A stretch of DNA of 64,000 nucleotides from Lophium mytilinum (Eukaryota), in NCBI GenBank assembly GCA_010093605.1, contig MU004194.1, positions 968,323 through 1,032,322 of the forward strand. The letters run 5' to 3'. Below, piece after piece: positions 8,130-46,348 of this stretch (its first letter is position 1; the number at the start of each line of letters is the position of its first letter). A program made the position numbers and the translations under genes. The notes beneath the pieces were generated by a model. It did not search any database. It was not told the origin of the DNA and was given only the letters and a program-made list of their open reading frames with translations.

Positions 8130-11100
8130 ATGAAGTCTGCAGCTATCGCGGTCCTCGCCTTCGGCGGTGCTGCACTCGCTGCTCCTACTCTTAACCCAGG
8201 CGAGCTTGGCATTCCTGACTCTGCCCAGCTTGTATCCTCCTTGGAGAACTCAGCATCGGCACCTGCTGCTAAGCTGGTTTCAAAAGTCGACCGTGTTGTC
8301 AACGGCAACGAAGGGGCCCAAACCTCGGCGCCCGCGGTACAGGCTGCACAATGGAAGAGAGGCGGCGCAGAATATGAAGATGGCTCAGGGTGAGTTGTGT
8401 TACTCTCATACATCACACCATCAATCATATACGCTTAATGCCACGCAACCCTGACTGTTCCGCCTGTCCACGACACATGGCCTACTACAAAGTGGTACTG
8501 AAGCACCCCAAGCGATGGGAGAAAGATTCACGCCAACGCACCTCCGATTTCTCAACTGAAGTTCATATTTGCTAACTCGTTGACATAGTGATGTGTGCAT
8601 CGGTGGCACAACTCTGGTGACGGTCACCGGTCACGGTGGCTGCCAGGGGGGCAAGCCAACCCCGTACGAAACTCCCAGCTACGAGACTCCTATCTACGAG
8701 ACTCCTAGCTATGAGACTCCCAAGTACGAACAGCACGGCAAACCAACCCCGTACGAAACTCCTAGCTACGAGACTCCCAAGTACGAGCAGCAGGGCAAGC
8801 CCACTCCGTACGAGACTCCCGCGTACGAGCAGTACAGCAAGCCTACCCCGTATGAGACACCCAGCTACGAGAAGCCTGGAAAGCCTACCCCATACGAGAG
8901 CTCTTCCTACGACGCCGGAGAGGCTTCTTGCCAAGGCTGCGGATATGAGGGATTGAAAGGAAAATTCGGCTATCAGTCGACCTCCTCTTCCTCTTCCTCT
9001 TCCTGCTCCTCTCCATACGGTTATCCTGAGGCCACCCCGTACAAGACCAACACCGTGGGGTCCTCTACTTCCAGCTACCATGGAGCCGAAAAGAGTGCCC
9101 ACCCGTACCACCAGCATGCGCATGGGCATGGCGGGTACGAGGCCGAGAGCTCTACATCTAGCTATGAGCAATATAGCAAGTCGACCCCGTATCAGGCTGA
9201 GAGCTCCACTCCTAGCTACAAGCATTTTGGCAAGCCATCCCCGTATCAGGCCGAGACCTACACTCAAGACCTATTCCCCCCGTACCAGGCCAAGACCTAT
9301 TCCACTTCTAGCTACGAGCAGTATGTTAAGCCAACCCCGTACCAGGCCGAGACCTATGGCGCTTTTACCTCCACTTCTAGCTACGAGCAGTCCGGCAAGC
9401 CTACCCCGTATCAGGCTTCGACCTCCACTTCTAGCTACGAGCAATACGTCACGCCTACTCCTACGCCTAAGGCACAGGGTGGGTTCCAATGGTTCGGATG
9501 GTTCTGGAACGGACGCGACAAGACCACTTCAACTTCCGCTTCAACTTCGTGCTCAACTTCAACTCTGTCCTCGACTTCTAGCTATACTCCCGTCTACGGC
9601 TGGGCTGACAAGTCTACTTCAACTTCGTCCTCGACTTCTAGCTCTACTCCCGTCTACGGATGGAATGACAAGTCTACCCCATACGAATCCTCGACTTCAT
9701 GCTCAACTTCAACTTCGTCCTCGACTTCATGCTCAACTTCAACTTCATCCTCGACTTCTAGCTATACTCCCGCCTACGAAAATGTCAAGTCTACCCCCTA
9801 CGAGGCCGAGACTCCCACCCCTACTCCCGCCTACGAGAATGCCAAGTCTACCCCCTACGAGGCCGAGACCCCTACTCCTACTCCCGCCTACGAGAATGCC
9901 AAGTCCACCCCCGAGGCCGAGACCCCCACCCCTACTCCCGCCTACGTGGAGCCCGCGACGCCTGAGGCCGAGACCCCGACTCCCACTCCCGCCTACGTGG
10001 AGCCCGCAACGCCTGAGGCCGAGACCCCGACTCCTACTCCCGCCTGGGTAGATCCCGCCCAGCCCGTAGCCGAGGAAACTCCCGCCACATGCCCAGGCCC
10101 TGAGTGCAAGAAGCAACAGAAGCGCGGCGAAGTCCTCATCGAGGAGGCAACTCCCGCCCCCTACAAGGCGGAGGAGACCCCTGTCTACGAAGCTGAGGAA
10201 ACTCCCTGCAGCAAGAGCGAGTTTGGGAACGGTGGCTATGCCGAGACCCCAACTCCCGCCTACGAGGAGAAGCAGTACGGCAAGCCGACCCCCTATGAAG
10301 TCGAGACCCCAACTCCCGCCTACGAGGAGAAGCAGTACGGCAAGCCAACCCCCTACGAAGTCGAGACATCGACTCCCGCCTACGAACAGCAAGGCAAACC
10401 CTCCCCCTGCCATCACTGCGAGCACAACGAGGGCTTCGAGACTCCCGCCTTTTCGACCCCTGGCTACGGCTACCCTGAGGTAACCCCACCACCTGGGCAG
10501 TACGGCACCTGGACCTCCACTACCACCGGCACTTTCTCTGATCCCACCACCACCTCCAACACCTTCTCAGAGTCTGCCACCACCGTCACCGTCTCCACCA
10601 CCGTGACCGATGCCACCACCGTGACCGATACTGCCATCCCCACCACCGTGACCGTCGCCCTCGAGGCTCGCGGCGGAGGAGGCGTCGGCGGCTACGGAGG
10701 CTACAACAACCATGATTGGGAGACCTCGAGCTCGTCAACTTCGGGCTCCTCGTCCTCGAGCGACCCGGCCACGACCACCTCTAGCAGTTCCGCGACCTCA
10801 GCATCGACCTTCGACGGCACTGCCACCGAGACTGACATTGTTACTGCCACCGAGACCGACGCCACCACTACTGCGACCTCCACCGTAGCCACCGTGACCA
10901 TGACCGATGCGGCTGGCCTCTTGCCCCGTGGCGGAGGCTACGCCAACGGTTACGGCAATGGCAACGGCTACGGCCACTATGGCGATGCGCATGAGTGGAC
11001 CACTACTGAGTCCTCAAGCTCGAGCTCGTCAACCTCGGGCTCTTCCTCGAGCGATCCGGCTACGACTACCTCGAGCAGTTCCGCCACCTCAACGTCGACA

Positions 11101-12330
11101 TTCGATGGCACTGCTACCGAGACCGACATTATTACTGCTACCGAGACCGATGCCACCACCACTGCCACCTCCACCGTAGCGACTGTCACCGTGACCGATG
11201 CCGCCGGCCTCTATCCCCGCGGTGGCGGGAAGCATGGCTATGGCAGCTATGATTACGGCTACATTGATCACCGCACTGAGTTTTCGTCCACAACCTCGAG
11301 CTCCGCAACCTCGAGCTCTGCAACCTCAAGCTCCACAAGCTCCTCAACTTCGAGCGACCCCGCGACGACCACGTCCAACTCGAGCCAGTCTAACTCAGCG
11401 ACCGTGACCGAGACTACAACCTCTACCGAATCCGAGACGGCCACAGTCACTGATGACGTTACTGCTACCGATACTGTGACGGCTGCTATCTTCCGCCGTG
11501 GCGGAGGAGGCGGCTACGGCAACTATGGCGACGAATGGGCCACACCCACGGAGTCCTCGTCCTCAACCTCAAGCTCCTCATCCTCGAGCTCGACCGCCAG
11601 TTCCACCTCCTCGAGCTCGTCTGACTCGGCCACCGTCACCATGACCACTACCTCGACTGAGACCGAAACGGCCACAGCGACCGATGACGTTACGGCCACC
11701 GACACCGTGACTGCGGCGGCCGCCACACAAGCCCGCGCTTTCTTCCCCCGTGGCGGAGGCTACGGCAACTACGGCGGCGAATGGGCCCACCACACCGAAA
11801 CCGAGTCCTCCACTTCCTCCACTTCCTCCTCCTCCTCCTCGAGCGGCGACCCCACCTCAACCAGCTCCAGCAGTTCCGCCACCTCTACCGGGACCGGCAG
11901 CTCTACCATGACGACCACGGCCACGGCCACAGCCACGGCGACGGCTACCACCACTGCCACTACCACTGCGGCGGCAGTTGCCTCCGCGGCAGACGGTGTC
12001 CTCTTGGCCCGCGGCGCATCCGCCACCGACATCGCTAGCACCTCAACTGGCTGGCCTGCTATGTCGATTAATACGAAGCCTGTCAGCGTCCGCCACGCCG
12101 TGCTGCCTACTCTGGAGGACCGCGGCCTTTTCTGGGACCGCACCAAAACCGAGCCAGCGGCTAAAACCAAGGTCTACCCGACGGCGACTTACGAGTACAA
12201 GGTCGTGGGGCCGACGGATAACCGCAAGACGGTCGTCGTGGACGCGACCGAGACGCACTGGCCGCAGTACTGGGAGCCGACGGAGATCTGGGGCAAGTCA
12301 GAGGCGAAAGCGACGGCGACGGCCGCGTGA
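8130..12330 (+). CDS. Secreted ~1,330-aa Ser/Thr/Pro/Tyr-rich modular repeat protein with recurrent R|G putative processing sites
   Basis: Signal peptide MKSAAIAVLAFGGAALA|AP at 8130; intron 8390-8588 (GTGAGT...GCTAAC...TAG) joins in frame to the 1245-aa ORF; no obvious GPI signal at the C-terminus. Confidence 0.88.
8650..11990 (+). repeat. Coding tandem repeats inside the secreted repeat protein
   Basis: YETPS / GKPTPYETPSYETPKYEQ units (~8650-8900), PAYENAKSTPYEAETPTPT units (~9770-10040), TPAYEEKQYGKPTPYEVET x2 (~10250-10380), and five R-GGG-(Y/G head)-Ser-run-Thr-run modules (~10670-11990). Confidence 0.9.
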
Positions 12331-37453: not shown

Positions 37454-37877
37454 ATACGAAGAAAGGCTAAATTTCTCTTTGATATCATTTAGCCTGCTCT
37501 TCGTCTAAGACGGGTTCTTCCCAAATCCTCACTCGGTACAAAGGGTATAGAGTATTCTGCCCCCATTTGCTGTGGAGCTTTGCCATTACGCTATCTCTCA
37601 CGCCAAACAGTGAAACTAGTAAACATCCCTCCGGCTGTAGTTGTCTACACATGTGACACACTCGCAGATACTAACGTTAGAACCATACTGGCAGAAAGTT
37701 ATTTTTGTTTCCAATTGTTTTGTCACGTGCTATATGACCGGGGTCTCGAGGTTAGCAATGACGTTAGGCGGGGATCTCACAACACTTCTTCCAATGACAA
37801 CAAATTTCTCAATTCCTCAACCCACGCCCCTAATTAAACATAACTCTCACCTCGGTAAATTCATATGCGACAACAAA

Positions 37878-39225
37878 ATGTCCATTCCGCGTAGATCACT
37901 CAGAACCTTCCTAATCACCGCAAAAGACGCCATTCGAACCGCTGTAGACAACAGCCAAAAGATTACGTTCGTGATTGGCAACGAATCAGCCGGTACGGCC
38001 CAATCAGTAGACTCTTTGTCACTTCCACTAATTTGTAGATCTCGATTCTCTAACCTGCTCGATCCTGTATGCTTACCTCCGCTCAAGCTGTCCACCTCCT
38101 CATGCATTCACACCGCTCTTCGTCCCCGTCGCAAACATACCGGCCTCGGGGATACAGCTCCGTCCCGAGCTGCTTGCCCTTCTGCCCCACGCGGACATCG
38201 AGGAAAAGCATTTGATTACGCTGGATGACATACCCGAGCTATCTAGCATCAAGTCGAGATTACGCCCGGAGAATACCAAATGGATACTGGTGGACCACAA
38301 TGCGTTACAGGGGACGCTTGGCAGCATATACTCGGAACGAGTCGGAGGAGTCATTGACCACCACGATGAAGAGAACAAGGTTTCGGCAGACACCGCTGAT
38401 GAGCCTCGCATCATCGAGAAGGCAGGCAGCTGCACAAGCTTGGTCACAGAATACTGTCGTGGAGCATGGGATGCCATATCAGATACGAAGCTGTCATCTG
38501 GCGCAGCTCATGCACAGGGCGACGAAGCGGTAGGAGATGGAGCGGTGAGAACCCTATGGGACGCGCAAGTTGCGCAGCTCGGACTGGCCAGCATCTTGAT
38601 AGACACATCCAATCTGCAGTCGAAAGAGAAAACCACTGGACACGACGTCACCGCGGCTGAGTATCTCGAGGCCAAAATCATGGCCTGCACGCAGGTAGCC
38701 GGCGGATTTGACAGGACCAAGTTTTACAAGGAGATCGATACGGCGAAGAAAAATATTGGGGGCCTCAAGCTGCAGGACATACTAAGAAAAGACTATAAGC
38801 AGTGGACAGAAGGGGGTCTGAAACTCGGCATCAGCTCAGTGGTCAAATCCCTAAATTTCTTGCAGGAAAAGGCCCAAGCAGAAGCGAATGGGCGGTCCAC
38901 TGCAGATGCTTTCTACTCAGCCGTGCGCGAATTCGCAGACGAACAGGAGCTTGATATGTACGCCATCATGACAACGTCGACGTCCCCCGAGGGCAATTTC
39001 CAACGCGAGCTTCTACTTTGGGCATTCACGGCTGACACCGTAGCCACTGCCCAGAAGTTTGAAACGAATGCCACGGGTGAATTGGGGCTCGAGAGCTGGC
39101 ACGGCTCGGACGGCAGGTCTCACGATGAGGACAGCGAGAAGGATTGGAGAAAGGTGTGGCGGCAACGCAGTGTCCAGCACAGCAGAAAGCGGGTCGCGCC
39201 GTTGCTCAGGGAAGCCATGAGTTGA
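37878..39225 (+). CDS. PPX1: Exopolyphosphatase (DHH/DHHA2 family)
   Basis: VIGNESA|DLDS, VDHNAL, IDHHDE, GSCTSLV, ILIDT, LRKDYKQW, SRKRVAPLL; intron near 37993-38038. Confidence 0.93.
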
Positions 39226-40905
39226 AACAAGCACCAGGCAGGTAAGCAGATATACGGAGTTCAGAGGGCGCGATACGCGCTCAGCACCGACCTCTCACAA
39301 GCTCGAAGTCGGTTTCGTCGGTCGAGGGTTCTGCAAGACACACCCGAGAGAGATGTGGCGGGAGATCAGCGGTCCGCTTGCTTGATTAGCAGCACGTTAG
39401 GTTCCAACGACAGGTTGGGCGATTCGCACAGTGGCCCAAAATGCAATGCACTGGATGCCCAAGAAGAAAGTCGATTGAGCGCTGAGGGTTTGTGCCGATC
39501 AGAGGGGACAGTGGAGATGCTGGGCTCGCAAACCCCCTTCCGCAAGACTCGTTTGGATGGCAGGCCTGTCCCGGAAATGGACTCGAAGCACGAGTAAGGG
39601 GCCAGGATGATTGGAAATGGAAGCAATGAAATCTTTAATCTACCTAAATCTAATCTTTTACGAAGGGAAACGAATGGCTGGAGGCAGGTGGCAGTACGGG
39701 GAGACGCACGCAAGCGGGACCACGCCTGGAGAAAGCAGTACCATGTAGGCAGCCGGCAGGACGATGCCGATGTCTAGTTCTTGCGCTGATACACAGATTC
39801 GGAGGGGTGCAGGCAGGGCGGACAGGTCTCGCCAGCGTCGGCCGTTGATTGCGCGCGGTCAATCGCACGCGGGTTTAGGTTTCAATCTAACGACGCGCCT
39901 CTGGATGCTTAGGGAAACAGTCGTTCTGCACTGGCGTGCAGGAGTGACAGGCTGGCTTGCATGCATCTCTCTGCCAGCACATCAACCTCGTGCAGGGCCG
40001 ATCTGCCTGAACCACTGGCGACCCGCAACTTTGAGCGCCTGCGACGGCTTTCGTGCCGCGAAGGGGTCCGCAGAGGCCGTCGCGAAGGGGTCTGGAGAGC
40101 GACAAAAGGGACTGCTGTGGGCGCCGACGTCGGGCTGGGTCGCAGAAGAGGTCGCCAGGGCTGCCAGGCTGCTGAAGCCACCCGCGGCGGAATCTGGAGC
40201 TCGACAGCGCAGACTTGGCCGCGGACCAGGTGGCGGAGCGGGGATGGAGCCTGGTGGGCCTCCAGCTGCACCGCCAGAAGAGCCTGAGGCCCGGCTTCAG
40301 TGGTGGTGAGCATCGTGGGATTGTTCTGCACCGCGTGGCCGTGGCGGACTGCAGGCAGCCCGAAGCGTCTGGGAGGGCTCCACGGTGCCTCTCTGTGTGG
40401 CCTGTCAGCGCCGGGCAGGCTTCGTGAACAGCGCAGCTTCGGCGTCGTGATTCGCGCGTGCCCACGCAGTGTGTGCTGGCCTGCTGCAAGTCATCGGCCT
40501 CCATGTCCAACCTCCCATGCCAGCCCTCTCCTGCTCGCGCTGAAAGGCCTCTCCAGGGCGGTCAGTCGCCACCGCTGCCGTCCAATCTGCCTGCTCGCCG
40601 ACGAACTTCTGCATCCTGCCATCTCGCTGTCGCCATCGCGTCGCATCGCCGCCGTCGCTGTGCCCGCGCCTGTGCGGTTGTCTGCTTGTGTCGAGTCAAG
40701 ACACGCCGCCGCGTCTCGCCCTATCGATAACGGCGGCTGCCAGCACATCTGCCTCTCCACCACCTTCCAGCCAACTCCAACGCGACTCCGGCCATGCTGC
40801 CGTAGACGACGCTGCCCTGACAGCGCGCCCATTGCAATAGAGCCTCGCGATTCCTGATGGCGCAGCATGATTAGAAGAAACGACCACTCCGCCTCGCCGG
40901 CGGCC

Positions 40906-43900
40906 ATGCTACACTCTACTCCTCGTATGTGGACCACTGCTCTCCCTCTTCCCGCCCTCCTCAAACCTTCTCCCCCGTGCGCCCAATAGACTGCTCCGTG
41001 CGAGAATGCGCACTGTACGATGAGCTGGCATGAGCTAACTGAGCCCTCCGAGTAGCCGTGTCCCCAACCCTCACCCACGTCTCTTCTAGAACCCATACCC
41101 CCTCGCAGTCCGACGTCCATGACCCTCCTCGAGAAGTCCCTCTCCGGTCTGCCAGTCCGCCACGGTCGCCCTCTCCGTCAAACACCGCCTCAACCATGGG
41201 AAGTCGACCTGGCGGACCCCTTGACCATGACCGGACAGCCAACGCCCAGCGGCCTGCCATCAATGCCTCCATCTCTGCTCCCGCCGGCCGCCTCCCACGC
41301 CTCCTCCCGCAAGACCTATCGCAGTATGCCGAATCGTACTTGCCCACTGCAGCTGTCACAACCTCATCCACTTCTCTCGCCGAGTTGGCACATCTGATCC
41401 GACTCCAAGGCTACCAGGAGCAGCGCAAGGCTCACTCCCGTGTTAGGCTTCACAGATGGCTGGTGGCAAGCGCCCTCTCTGCGCGTCTGGTACACTGCGG
41501 AGAGCTGGCCCACCGCACTTTGGTTGACAGCTTCAGGTCTGATGATAAGAAAAACTTTGCTACGCTTTATAATGCCCTTCACGACGTTCGGAACTCTTGC
41601 GACGCCACGAGACGCTATGCATTGCTGGAGCCCGATTTGGAATTTGGAATGTCTAAAAGTGCACGGAATGAAAAGTCGCAGTCGTTTTCTACGTTTATCA
41701 ATGAGGTTCCGTCCAAGATTTTAGACGAGCTGCTCGATTTCGTCTCTGAAATCCGCACGAACCCAGGTTTTCTTGCTACTCGCATTTTGAATTTGTCACA
41801 GCAGGAGCTAGCTTCTTTAACGTCATTTCGTCAAGCGTTGGATCCTATTGATTCCGTCATGGCGTTACAGGCTCGAGGTAAGGTTGTTGGTTCGGCCCCG
41901 AAGCCTTCTCAGCCCTCAAGCTCCAGTCCAGTAGAGCGTCTACTGTCTTTTCAACGGCATGATCCTCTTTCTGCTCTCATCTATACCATCTTTGCAAATT
42001 CCTCCGGCCCAGATTCCGCGGAGGATCTTCGCCGAACGGATGCCATGGCCACTACGTGTGCGAGGCTCATCACCGAAGGGAAACCCGGAAGTGACAAGTT
42101 CATCAAGCATGTCCTGGATGCCTGGGCCGGTATGCGGGAGTGGCCTGGAAAGGCCAATTTGGAGCTCTACCTAATGCAGGTTCTCCAGGATGGCCAGTTC
42201 CTGATGGAGAAAGCCGAGGACCAGCCAGCGAGGCCAGGGACGCAGCCGGTCCCGCGGAGCACCAAGGATACCATTGCTGCTGACGACTTCTACGACAAGG
42301 CCATCAAGAGACTTTTCGAGGTTGTTGACGATGAGCCAAGCGCGGGAGGTATCCCGGAAGGTGTTCTAGAGATTGGTACTGCCATTCTCCGTAAACTTGA
42401 AGACTCGAACAAGCATCGCACCGCAGCACGAACTTTCATTGTGTCTCGTTGGTTCTTTTCCACCTACTTGTTGAACGCAATCATTCATCCAGAGGCATGT
42501 CTCACTTTATTCTCGTCCATCCTTGGGTTCTCGTACTGACTCAAAATAGAGCCAGGGTATTATGACTGGTCATCACATCAGCGAGCATGCGCGTCAAAAG
42601 ATTCTCAAAGAGATTGCTATCAGGGCTCAGAAGCAGGTATTAGACATGACTTACAATTGGTATGACTGCGCTCTTCGTTCTCAAAAAACAACGCTAATGG
42701 ACCGATAGGAAACAAGCTGTTCCCATACTTCCCGAAATACGTACTCATATCGACAACATTCTTGGCCGCTTCAAGCACACTCGCAATCCGTCAAAGCCTG
42801 TCCTTCTTCCCGCCAAAGCCATTACCTCTCCCCGCGAGACGGTAGAGGTTCAGCCTTTCATCGTTGTTTGCCCTTCGGACATCATTACTTTGGTCAACAC
42901 GCTGTTTCCGGAACGTCGTCCTCCATCTAGTCATTTCGAAAAAGATTTGCAACGACGTGGGGGGCTAGCATCCTCCGCTTCGTCGATTTCTGGAGTTTCG
43001 TTACCCTTCCACCCCAATTCAGTCTCCGGAGATGCAAGCTCTGTACTTAGCATTAGCGCGTCGTCAATGACGAGCGATACCACATCGCGAGAGCCGCTTC
43101 TAGACTCTTCGGGTCACCCTATCGAGAGACACCCATTACTCCCAGGAGAAAATTACCATGAGCTGCCCAAGATTGCACCGACAGAAGACTATGGAAGGCG
43201 CCTGAGAATGGCTTGCTCTGAAATGTCTCGTATCCTTGGTGCGGAAGCGTCCTCGGGGTCTTGCCACCCATGCGCAGAACGATGGGCCGTTCTTTATGTT
43301 TCTCCGGATGGCAAAGAACTCCGAACTCGAATGCGGAAAGATGCTGATGATGAAGATGAGCACGACGAAGATTCACCAGACAGTGACAGTGAAGACGAGG
43401 GGCCGTCGGACAGGATCGACCTGGAGAGCGATTATCATCAGCTGAAGGAGGCAATCGGAAAGCTGGTCGAGGAATACGAGATTCCGAAGGAACTCGCACC
43501 CGAAAGCGAATCCAAAGGCTTCAGTAACCGCACTTCGACGCATCGCCGGGATGCGAGGAAGAACTTGGTCCGATCAGAAAGTGACAACCTCTCTTCAAGA
43601 AACCCATACCACAACCAGAGTCAAAGTCAGCTCACCAATCTGATTGCAAGTCAGCGATCTATGCCAGCCCGACATCGATCACCACAACATCCAAGAAGCA
43701 ACAGCAACCCAGATTCGAAGGATGCTGCGCAAGACAAAGCATCAGTACTCGTTACGATGCTTGAAGTGGCAATGCATCAATGTCAAGCTCGGTCAGACTT
43801 TGTCAGCGCACACCTTTATTACAAGACCCTACAGACCCTTCGAAAGCTTTCATCTCCGTCTCTCGTCCGAAATGGCTACTCTGCTCTTCTCAACTACTTC

Positions 43901-46348
43901 TCCAGAGGCCCACGGGACTCTCTCGGGAAGTCAGCTAGCGCCATCGAGGAGTTTGAGGCCTGGTTCGTATGGCTTAAGCAATCCCAAGAGCGGCACGATA
44001 CTGCGATTGATGACATGATACTGGGCTTAAAGAACCTTCGCGACAAGATGTGGTATATCACCGACGTCCGCAACTCTGCCGGCTACGAAGAAGCCAAGAA
44101 CGTTGCTATCGCCCTAAAAATAATGGGACAGCCGACCAAGACGCTCGATGGCAAGCCAATCCAGACTCCTCGACCCCGCAACTTCTCCAAGTCTTCCACC
44201 AATAATTTCTTGCTCAAGACTGAAGCTCAAGTCGTCGATCTCATGGCGGCTAATTCAGATCATGGTGGTCCTAACAAGCTAGCCGACGAGCAATCCGAGC
44301 TGACCCTCCGCTGGCTCACACAGTACAGTGTCGAGAATTTCTGCAAGGGCGAGGAAAGGATTCATCGATTTTGTCTTGAAATCGACAAATGCGTCAACAA
44401 GCTTGTTGGCGACGGCATTCTCGACGGTCCAGTCCTGTGGTCGTCGGAACTCTACCGCCGTGATAAAGAGATACTTGACAGCGGTCGGCAAAAGGGTGAT
44501 CTTTTCCTGACTGGCGTGGGAACGCTGTCAATTGCCGGCGACGAAGAATACGAAACGCAGCATAACCGTCCAGGCTCGCGAAGCTTAGACTTCGCCCAAC
44601 GTCCTAGTCAAAGCAGTCTGCGTTCGATCTCGGACCGTAATGTATCTCAGCAAAGTTTCGAGTCTGGCAAATTTGGCTCGGGGAGAAATATGGACTTGAT
44701 GGATTCCCAAGATTACTTCGGAGGCTCAAGTCCCGTGCTTACCATTGATTCTACAACGACTTTCTGGTCTCCCTTCCAAACGCAAGCTCAGTCACCTACA
44801 AGTGCGACCAGCATTAGGCCTCGGACCGCATCGTCCTCGAAAGGAACAGTGATGCTCAAGCAATCAGCCACCGTGAATGAGGACAAGCGCCGATTCTTGC
44901 TGGATCTCAAGCAAACATTGACAGGCCTGCTTCTCAGTGATCTTGGGACTATGGTGTTTGGTCATGGTAGCGAGACGGACGCGTGGTTCTCTGGTGATCT
45001 CGGGGAGGAGTGTATTCAACGCAAAGAGGAGGAGGATCGTCGGAGGAAGAGAGCTTTGGCGCGAAAGAAGAGTATGAAGAGCATGAAGAGTTCTGCTCGC
45101 GCCGAGCACCGTTCCGGACCTTTGGACACATTGGGTCGTAACGAACGGAGTCAGCCAGCGGCCCCAGTTGCAACACTTCAACACGCTGCACCGGACTCGC
45201 ACCACTCGGCTGGAGAGTATTCCACATCATCCAGTGATGCCACAGCCAGGTCCACGGGCATGGCTGCGGCCAAGAAAACCGGGCTACTCGAGTTCCCCTA
45301 CAACATGGCTTTCAGGCGTCTTTTGAACAAATTCGCCACGCATCCCAATCCTTTCTCGAAACTGCACGCCCTCTACGAGCTAGAACTCCTCATCATTGCA
45401 TCTTTGACGTCACGCTCGGGCCGATCTTACAACAGCCGTCGCGAGACGCTTCCGACAGTTCCTCAGTCGCCAACTCTTGGAGCAATGCCAGAACTCAGCT
45501 CTCGTGAGCCTGCCGCACATGTTTCACGTGCCCAGAACCTCGAGGAAGCCATCGCCAATTGCGAAGAGCGTCGATCGCACAGCATGACTGTTCAACACGG
45601 CAACGGCACTGCTTCTCCAGTTCCATTCCGCAGTGCTAGTGGCGCTGGAACTCGCTCCCCTGTCGGCCCACCCAGCACCGACATGATCGTGGAAGTCTTG
45701 CAAGGCTTGTTCCGTGACGCTGAGATTCGCCCCAAGACGCTCTTCCGTGACCTTCAGTACATCGCCTCCTTCGTCCCAGCTCAGATGCTCGACAAGACGG
45801 CCCGTGGCAAAGCCTTCTGGGACGCCGGTCTTGCTGCTCTAGGCTTGAAGCAAGACGTCTGCCGTGTCATGGTCGAAATCGCTGATGAGATCGTCGCCCT
45901 CAACACCCAGAACCGCTCCACCAGCATCTCAGCGCAGAGTCAAGGCAACGCGAGCCTTAGCACGCCATCCTCGACGAAACAAACGTCGTCGTCCCCCGCT
46001 ACTCCTATCCCTGCCGACGACCCACTTGCCCGCTACACGATGGAAGATGCAGCACGCATGCTTATCATTACCGCCAAGGAGGGAGACGCTGTAGCAGAGC
46101 GTGAACTCGCCATCTTCTACCTCACGCACCCAGATCTCCTTCAGCGGACCGTCTTGCCGCTGACGAAGCCGCGTGATGTTTTCAAGAGCGAGCTATTGAA
46201 CAGAGATCGCAAGAGGGAAGACATGGCTCGCAGCGACCCGATGACGATGTGTGTTGCGCAGCACTGGATGGAAATGAGCAAGAAGGGTGGCGATGTGCTC
46301 GCCACCAAGTATCTGCGAGCCCGCGACGAGATGGAGAGGATTCCGTAG
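40906..46348 (+). CDS. Large (~1,735 aa) protein; proposed RasGAP-like + VPS9-like + SEL1-like architecture (GAPVD1/RME-6-like)
   Basis: Exons 40906-40924, 41056-42494, 42550-42659, 42709-46348 form one frame (in-frame upstream ATG also at 40867); the second intron is GC-AG. The gene model is solid; the domain calls are by eye. Confidence 0.8.

Follow-up and report, generated by a model that had tools for sequence, protein, structure and literature searches.

A Lophium mytilinum protein with predicted RasGAP, VPS9 and Sel1-like folds, probably a strongly diverged fungal GAPVD1/RME-6 ortholog

A window of 64,000 nucleotides (nt) from the fungus Lophium mytilinum (assembly GCA_010093605.1, contig MU004194.1, positions 968,323 to 1,032,322) carries a gene whose product is predicted to combine, in this order, a RasGAP fold, a Ser/Pro-rich low-confidence linker, a helical bundle joined to a VPS9 fold, and a Sel1-like tail. 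RasGAP followed by VPS9 is reported as the architecture of GAPVD1 (PMC6032885, PMC13388671), and because the predicted order is the same, the gene is likely a GAPVD1 ortholog. The fuller reading is probable on the models: a strongly diverged GAPVD1/RME-6 ortholog, single-copy throughout Pezizomycotina, in which a pseudo-GAP (GAP, GTPase-activating protein) scaffold is coupled to a VPS9 module that binds a Rab5-family GTPase. A first-pass annotation, made from the letters alone, had proposed a RasGAP-like N-terminus, a VPS9-like C-terminus and a SEL1-like tail; each of these folds emerged as the top structural match for the segment so named, with VPS9 matched at fold level. The outcome that it named as refuting, a lack of any RasGAP or VPS9 fold, thus did not arise.

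The N-terminal AlphaFold2 model was made from residues 34-522 of a close spliced relative (P0004, 89% across exon 4) with a 106-row alignment, and reached a predicted local distance difference test (pLDDT) of 86.2 and a predicted template modelling score (pTM) of 0.86. In a wide structure search of 48,161 chains, p120GAP, neurofibromin, SynGAP, IQGAP and plexin occupied ranks 1-7 (Z 13.4-11.2, root-mean-square deviation (rmsd) 3.7-6.0, 224-292 residues aligned), the next match lying at Z 9.0. A second comparison returned 19 entries at Z 10.3-14.4, all of them RasGAPs apart from a plexin and a Toxoplasma chain, before falling to 7.6, and the best Foldseek row was the GAP-related domain of IQGAP1 (E 2.4e-3, probability 1.0). 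When the family profile was aligned by hhalign with the fungus's own Gap1-type RasGAP, E values were 1.8e-4 to 2.7e-4, whereas the best of 21 unrelated control pieces reached 0.09 and the best of 25 shuffles 0.1; its own IQGAP and Bud2-type proteins gave 0.1 and 0.035. Atlas neighbours, taken as suggestive leads and from named clusters only, begin with three RasGAP clusters (0.90-0.91), commonest in Arthropoda, Nematoda and Discosea; a RasGAP+VPS9 cluster stands at 0.84, closely followed by a fungal RasGAP/RasGAP_C cluster (0.83). Prediction and structure comparison thus place a RasGAP fold at the N-terminus. The helical hairpin in front of it drew only generic coiled-coil matches (Z 7.5-8.9).

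The C-terminal model covers window positions 43718-46345 (residues 860-1735; 62-row alignment), with pLDDT 72.5, pTM 0.74 and 235 low-confidence residues in inserts. Against the same 48,161 chains, its first match was AtVPS9a (Z 11.2, rmsd 5.2, 219 of 246 residues) and its second Rabex-5 (Z 10.2, 219 aligned), both covering residues 965-1583 and with them the helical bundle as well as the VPS9 core. AtVPS9a was again first in a second comparison (Z 10.6), and Legionella Lpg0393, which we take to be VPS9-like, matches the core at Z 6.1. The VPS9 assignment is structural, at the level of fold, on a predicted all-helical model. Sel1 proteins follow at ranks 3-13 of the wide search and 2-6 of the second comparison (best Z 8.9, rmsd 2.4); since these matches have Z under 9, Sel1 and TPR are not firmly separated for the tail. 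Of the three folds that the first-pass annotation expected from AlphaFold and Foldseek, RasGAP and, weakly, Sel1 were seen among the Foldseek rows, and VPS9 came from the other structure search. For residues 860-1000 a RasGAP_C likeness by hhalign (E 0.23-0.34) fell inside the control range. A conserved W-S-P-F motif in one insert, with a Ser/Thr-Pro cluster after it, may be akin to the WxxF motifs that bind adaptors or to a kinase site.

Catalytic divergence, raised as a possibility in the first-pass annotation, is borne out at several positions: the arginine of the FLR motif is lost, the VPS9 Glu/Tyr motif is replaced, and no arginine-finger candidate is invariant. Among the 106 rows the FLR-arginine column holds S in 49, T in 21, R in 8 and K in 8, a composition unlike that of active RasGAPs, and GAP activity of this fold is improbable. 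In the VPS9 module, D1514 lines up with the catalytic aspartate in the Ser-Ala-Asp motif of the fungus's own VPS9 genes, by a non-significant alignment that the fold match backs. This column is acidic in 70 of 78 rows (D 66, E 4), the 78 being what remains of 350 after filtering at 80% identity. For comparison, D313A is reported to cut Rabex-5 activity about 28-fold and Y354A about 17-fold (PMC3563681), D1429 of hRME6 to be required for Rab5 recruitment (PMC13388671), and yeast Vps9 to rely on D251 and E288 (PMC7418515). Around the fungal VPS9 motif stand family-specific, near-invariant neighbours (K1407, P1531 and Q1539 in 78 of 78 rows, F1559 and K1570 in 77).

Of 8,000 candidates scored against exon 4, 833 were relatives, and a search with exon 2 yielded 256 cluster representatives, 150 of them listed; on these counts the motifs picked out by the first-pass annotation are conserved in sequence and not chance. 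All 11 occur in the order it gave in the spliced translation, starting at residues 114 (LAELAHLIRL), 235 (FVSEIRTNPGFLA), 312 (SALIYTIF), 328 (AED), 477 (YLLNAIIHPE/SQG junction), 1403 (NPFSKLHAL), 1512 (STDMIVEVL), 1531 (PKTLFRDLQYIASF), 1556 (GKAFW), 1645 (AKEGDAVAERELAIFY) and 1706 (AQHWMEMSKKGGDVLA). Named members, whose genera we assign to classes from general knowledge, span Dothideomycetes, Sordariomycetes, Eurotiomycetes, Leotiomycetes, Lecanoromycetes, Lichinomycetes and Pezizomycetes, a range that is a lower bound, as the best 120-150 rows were listed and many rows are nameless. They include Neurospora crassa NCU08889, Sordaria macrospora SMACR_05126 and Podospora PODANS_2_6570; the closest is from Mytilinidion resinicola (98% identity across exon 4). 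The family is common to moulds, plant pathogens and lichen fungi, and almost all members are labelled hypothetical or uncharacterized. A few members bear the database label 'chromatin assembly factor 1 subunit' or 'UBA domain-containing'; both were dismissed, as Pfam showed neither family in the members scanned (P0109, P0180). A quick tree of the 106 rows served only for query choice and class-level clades. Residue 337 (42045-42047) is Met in L. mytilinum, Leu in M. resinicola and Trp in 103 of 106 rows.

Within the L. mytilinum genome the only match to the gene is itself, the next lying at E 0.11 and 0.25. Pfam gave no family at E<=10 on the two large exons. In relatives, RasGAP appeared below threshold in 2 of 9 (best E 0.014) and 2 of 32 proteins, and VPS9 and Sel1 each in 1 of 32 (E 0.092 and best E 0.1); these matches are given little weight because unrelated families reach equal or better E. 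For residues 1373-1735, the second-ranked Atlas cluster (0.84) has 59 members and no Pfam family. It comes from Basidiomycota for the 2 members with a record, and could be a lead to a relative outside Pezizomycotina.

How a conserved protein could go unnoticed is illustrated by the survey of Herman et al. (2018), in which 48 genomes were screened by BLAST and VPS9 hidden Markov models (HMMs) and the GAPVD1 subfamily is reported as lost in Fungi after Fonticula (PMC6032885). A protein as diverged as the NCU08889 family would escape BLAST and VPS9 HMM surveys. Besides that study, no title on a fungal GAPVD1 appeared among the listings searched, from a library with few subscription journals, and a search of main texts found no paper with any of six ortholog identifiers (Sordaria tag as SMAC_ form). 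AlphaFold DB, TED or InterPro may already carry a fold label assigned automatically. Pyricularia has three recognised VPS9 proteins (PMC7418515), and L. mytilinum, in agreement, has three canonical VPS9 genes, a true Vps9 among them, located elsewhere in the genome, as are its Gap1-, IQGAP- and Bud2-type RasGAP genes. By its predicted fold the GAPVD1-like gene is a fourth VPS9-fold protein beside these three. The genome also encodes two clear Rab5 paralogs (L018, L034/L037). A third, more distant Rab (L031, G000:C3:1231337-1234564) has a Rab5-like effector-region motif and is a possible alternative partner.

Like GAPVD1, RME-6 and Gapex-5 of animals, amoebae and Fonticula, the fungal protein has an N-terminal RasGAP fold and a long Ser/Pro-rich linker, and it resembles GAPVD1 in its C-terminal bundle and VPS9 fold, in the register of the catalytic aspartate and in overall size class. 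Unlike GAPVD1 it is undetectable by Pfam, carries two long inserts within the bundle and VPS9 module, has the VPS9 Glu/Tyr motif replaced, and continues into an extra Sel1-like tail. With Rabex-5, yeast Vps9 and AtVPS9a it shares the tandem of bundle and VPS9 (Z 10-11, 219 residues), whereas a RasGAP fold stands in front and no CUE domain or A20 zinc finger was found. It shares with IQGAP and fungal Gap1/Sar1, its best Foldseek and hhalign matches, a RasGAP fold with N-terminal extension helices, but no calponin-homology or IQ region was seen, the FLR arginine is lost, and VPS9 and Sel1 parts follow. The C-terminal helix pairs resemble those of HcpB and SEL1L (Z 7-8.9, rmsd 2.4-4), although the fungal tail has only about two repeats, below the Pfam cut-off.

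A number of results weigh against a GAPVD1 ortholog with a Rab5-binding VPS9 module. Foldseek gave nothing at E<=0.001 for either model, and the C-terminal rows shown were weak Sel1 and solenoid matches with no VPS9 entry; three family profiles, run with hmmsearch on the PDB, yielded nothing significant. Alignments by hhalign with the fungus's own VPS9 genes (E 0.3, 0.01 and 0.16) lie within controls, which reach 0.027. All structural matches are helical, with rmsd of about 4-6 and Z near the level at which a common arrangement is possible, and the nearest RasGAPs point to no single subfamily. The Gly-Glu-x-x-Tyr motif of the canonical VPS9 genes is replaced by T-A-R-G-K, and Tyr354 matters in Rabex-5; no Tyr is among the five commonest residues at columns 1553 and 1556-1561, and none occurs at 1552-1562 in the other alignment. 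The VPS9 region of the fungus's own Muk1-type protein, compared with 1,212 long-protein candidates, gave one match, a fused Muk1-type annotation, and no GAPVD1, so the likeness to GAPVD1 is one of architecture and not of direct sequence comparison. RasGAP domains are also reported on VPS9 proteins of individual taxa (PMC6032885). Finally, no named member lies outside Pezizomycotina among the best 120-150 matches listed, leaving a long gap to Fonticula.

The same taxonomic confinement would fit an independent origin, in which a Gap1- or IQGAP-type RasGAP duplicate, a VPS9 duplicate and a Sel1 tail were fused in the Pezizomycotina ancestor and no GAPVD1 ortholog is involved. The fungus's own Gap1-type gene is the best sequence match among testable genes, IQGAP1 is the best Foldseek row, and convergent VPS9 domain combinations are documented (PMC6032885). 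Such a fusion, however, would mean that this domain order arose a second time, in a lineage descended from bearers of GAPVD1, as seen in Fonticula (PMC6032885). Moreover, animal and amoebal RasGAP clusters outrank the fungal RasGAP/RasGAP_C cluster in Atlas, and extreme divergence suffices to explain the misses by Pfam and BLAST surveys. This origin appears distinctly unlikely.

A true dual enzyme of GAPVD1 descent, acting as a Ras/Rap GAP through R332/R333 and as a canonical Rab5 guanine nucleotide exchange factor (GEF) through D1514, is very unlikely. The kept D1514 and the alignment with the fungus's own IQGAP, which puts the arginine pair at the finger position, speak for it, as does the presence of an arginine at 332 and/or 333 in 92 of 106 rows. 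Neither arginine is near-invariant, however (64 of 106 at 332, 70 at 333), and both lie within a continuous helix of the model, not a loop; the register depends on the template, the Gap1 alignment placing the finger at R307 (R in 50 of 106), and the FLR arginine is retained in only 8 of 106. As the IQGAP alignments put AEDLRR at the finger position, the parallel drawn by the first-pass annotation between AED and animal GAPVD1 may be off by one helix. The FLR arginine is absent from animal GAPVD1 as well, which has a pair of arginines spaced to match; this is a lead and not a test. Least likely of the three, and slight in probability, is a scaffold protein with a genuine RasGAP fold, helical repeats at its C-terminus and no relation to Rab5, the VPS9 match being a helical-bundle coincidence: the non-significant sequence support, the fit of an all-helical model at rmsd 5.2 and Z 10-11, and the lone sub-threshold Pfam VPS9 match would suit it, but two VPS9-family representatives lead 48,161 chains, they cover 219 of 246 residues, with the two sub-domains in the right order, and the core is matched by a third VPS9-like protein; the register of the motifs (Ser-Thr-Asp, RP, LQYI, G..F) also accords with the structure result.

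If the gene is the GAPVD1/RME-6 ortholog favoured here, its RasGAP fold would be a catalytically weak or dead scaffold, as in IQGAP, and its VPS9 module would contact a Rab5-family GTPase through the retained aspartate. GAPVD1/RME-6 is reported to reach uncoated endocytic carriers in a burst that needs the full-length protein (PMC13388671), to have casein kinase 1 as an abundant partner (PMC7176688), and, for GAPVD1, to possess a RasGAP domain whose function is described as largely unknown (PMC8038846). By analogy with RME-6, the site of action may be nascent endocytic carriers or early endosomes, and from GAPVD1/RME-6 we infer a fungal scaffold that would meet a Rab5-family GTPase early in endocytosis. 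The Sel1-like tail would be a fungal addition, probably serving partner binding or gating of the Rab-binding face. An active GEF for Rab5-family GTPases is conceivable, at a little under even chances; a Rab5-family binder with no useful exchange activity is a lesser prospect, and retargeting of the VPS9 module to another GTPase is unlikely.

The gene itself is a single plus-strand unit of four exons encoding 1,735 residues, without internal stop in the spliced frame (Table 1), and each of its three introns has a branch-site-like motif. Transcript evidence consists of contigs from three runs (X1, X2, X3) whose RNA type was guessed by the tool, yet the contigs are spliced. The X1 contig shows no differences to the stretch and has exactly the three predicted introns removed; X2 and X3, from two related organisms, have joints at the same three places, the first joint of X2 with two other letters between. 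The GC-AG intron postulated by the first-pass annotation is indeed spliced out, YLLNAIIHPE/SQG being read across it; the 55-nt joint was placed at 42492/42548 with 2 letters of slide, compatible with a GC..AG reading. After the conserved PE, V follows in 79 of 89 read-through open reading frames and A in 8, which fits a conserved intron whose donor is mostly GT and sometimes GC. The M. resinicola annotation lacks the 18 residues preceding the GC donor, and the helix with the FLR-equivalent motif is missing from 11 of 65 full-length close annotations, M. resinicola alike; these 11 are likely mis-called splice donors. An alternative in-frame ATG at 40867, used in the M. resinicola annotation, would add 13 residues.

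Table 1. Features of the GAPVD1-like gene and of its predicted product (window positions).
Feature	Positions	Strand	Residues and remarks	Basis
Exon 1	40906..40924	+	start ATG	translation, spliced contigs
Intron 1	40925..41055	+	GT-AG, 131 nt	skipped in X1 and X3 contigs
Exon 2	41056..42494	+		translation, spliced contigs
Intron 2	42495..42549	+	GC-AG, 55 nt; position kept across family	spliced contigs, family alignments
Exon 3	42550..42659	+		translation, spliced contigs
Intron 3	42660..42708	+	GT-AG, 49 nt	translation, spliced contigs
Exon 4	42709..46348	+	through stop codon	open reading frame, spliced contigs
Predicted helical hairpin	41376..41636	+	114-200; two long helices (model 7-60, 64-93)	AlphaFold2 model
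Predicted RasGAP-fold domain	41718..42928	+	228-596; spans introns 2 and 3	model, structure search, hhalign, Atlas 0.91
Candidate arginine-finger position	42030..42035	+	R332/R333; register uncertain	alignment with own IQGAP
Position of FLR-motif arginine of canonical RasGAPs	42462..42464	+	T476	alignments
Predicted small helical bundle and long helix	43733..44032	+	865-964	C-terminal model
Predicted helical-bundle and VPS9 tandem	44033..45889	+	965-1583; split by long low-confidence inserts	model, structure search
Predicted VPS9 core	within 44033..45889	+	about 1387-1577	model, structure search
W-S-P-F short motif	44765..44776	+	in low-confidence insert	W 40, S 44, P 42, F 27 of 49 rows
Register of VPS9 catalytic aspartate	45680..45682	+	D1514	alignments with own VPS9 genes
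Place of VPS9 tyrosine in best alignment	45809..45811	+	K1557	K in 63 of 78 rows
Predicted Sel1/TPR-like helical tail	46040..46339	+	1634-1733; packs on last VPS9 helix	model, structure search, Atlas

Upstream, at 37641-39225, lies a DHH/DHHA2 exopolyphosphatase-like gene. The spliced X1 contig (9,526 nt) begins about 3,300 nt before 40500 and may also take in the upstream gene, through either assembly merger or read-through. A Stemphylium annotation (P0105) fuses the DHH/DHHA2 neighbour with the GAPVD1-like gene, so the adjacency of the two genes seems conserved. Elsewhere in the window, an open frame of 1,248 residues (8584-12330) matches no Pfam family at E<=0.001.

Tentatively, and short of an even likelihood, filamentous ascomycetes would have kept GAPVD1 and rebuilt it, with a scaffold RasGAP, a conserved VPS9 face of new sequence and a Sel1 cap, as a fourth Rab5-family regulator (a non-canonical GEF or a Rab5-holding pseudo-GEF) at the hyphal endocytic zone, lost in yeasts. 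If the ortholog reading is true, the published loss of the GAPVD1 subfamily in Fungi would be overturned, and filamentous fungi would have a fourth VPS9-fold protein besides their three recognised ones. The case also illustrates that a conserved regulator can stay hidden behind surveys based on domains and a mis-called splice donor. Single-copy and present in a genetic model (Neurospora, NCU08889), the gene would offer a handle on GAPVD1's RasGAP domain, which is poorly understood, and on a non-canonical VPS9 face. Hyphal growth depends on endocytosis and on Rab5 early endosomes, and filamentous fungi may hold an overlooked regulator of early endocytosis.

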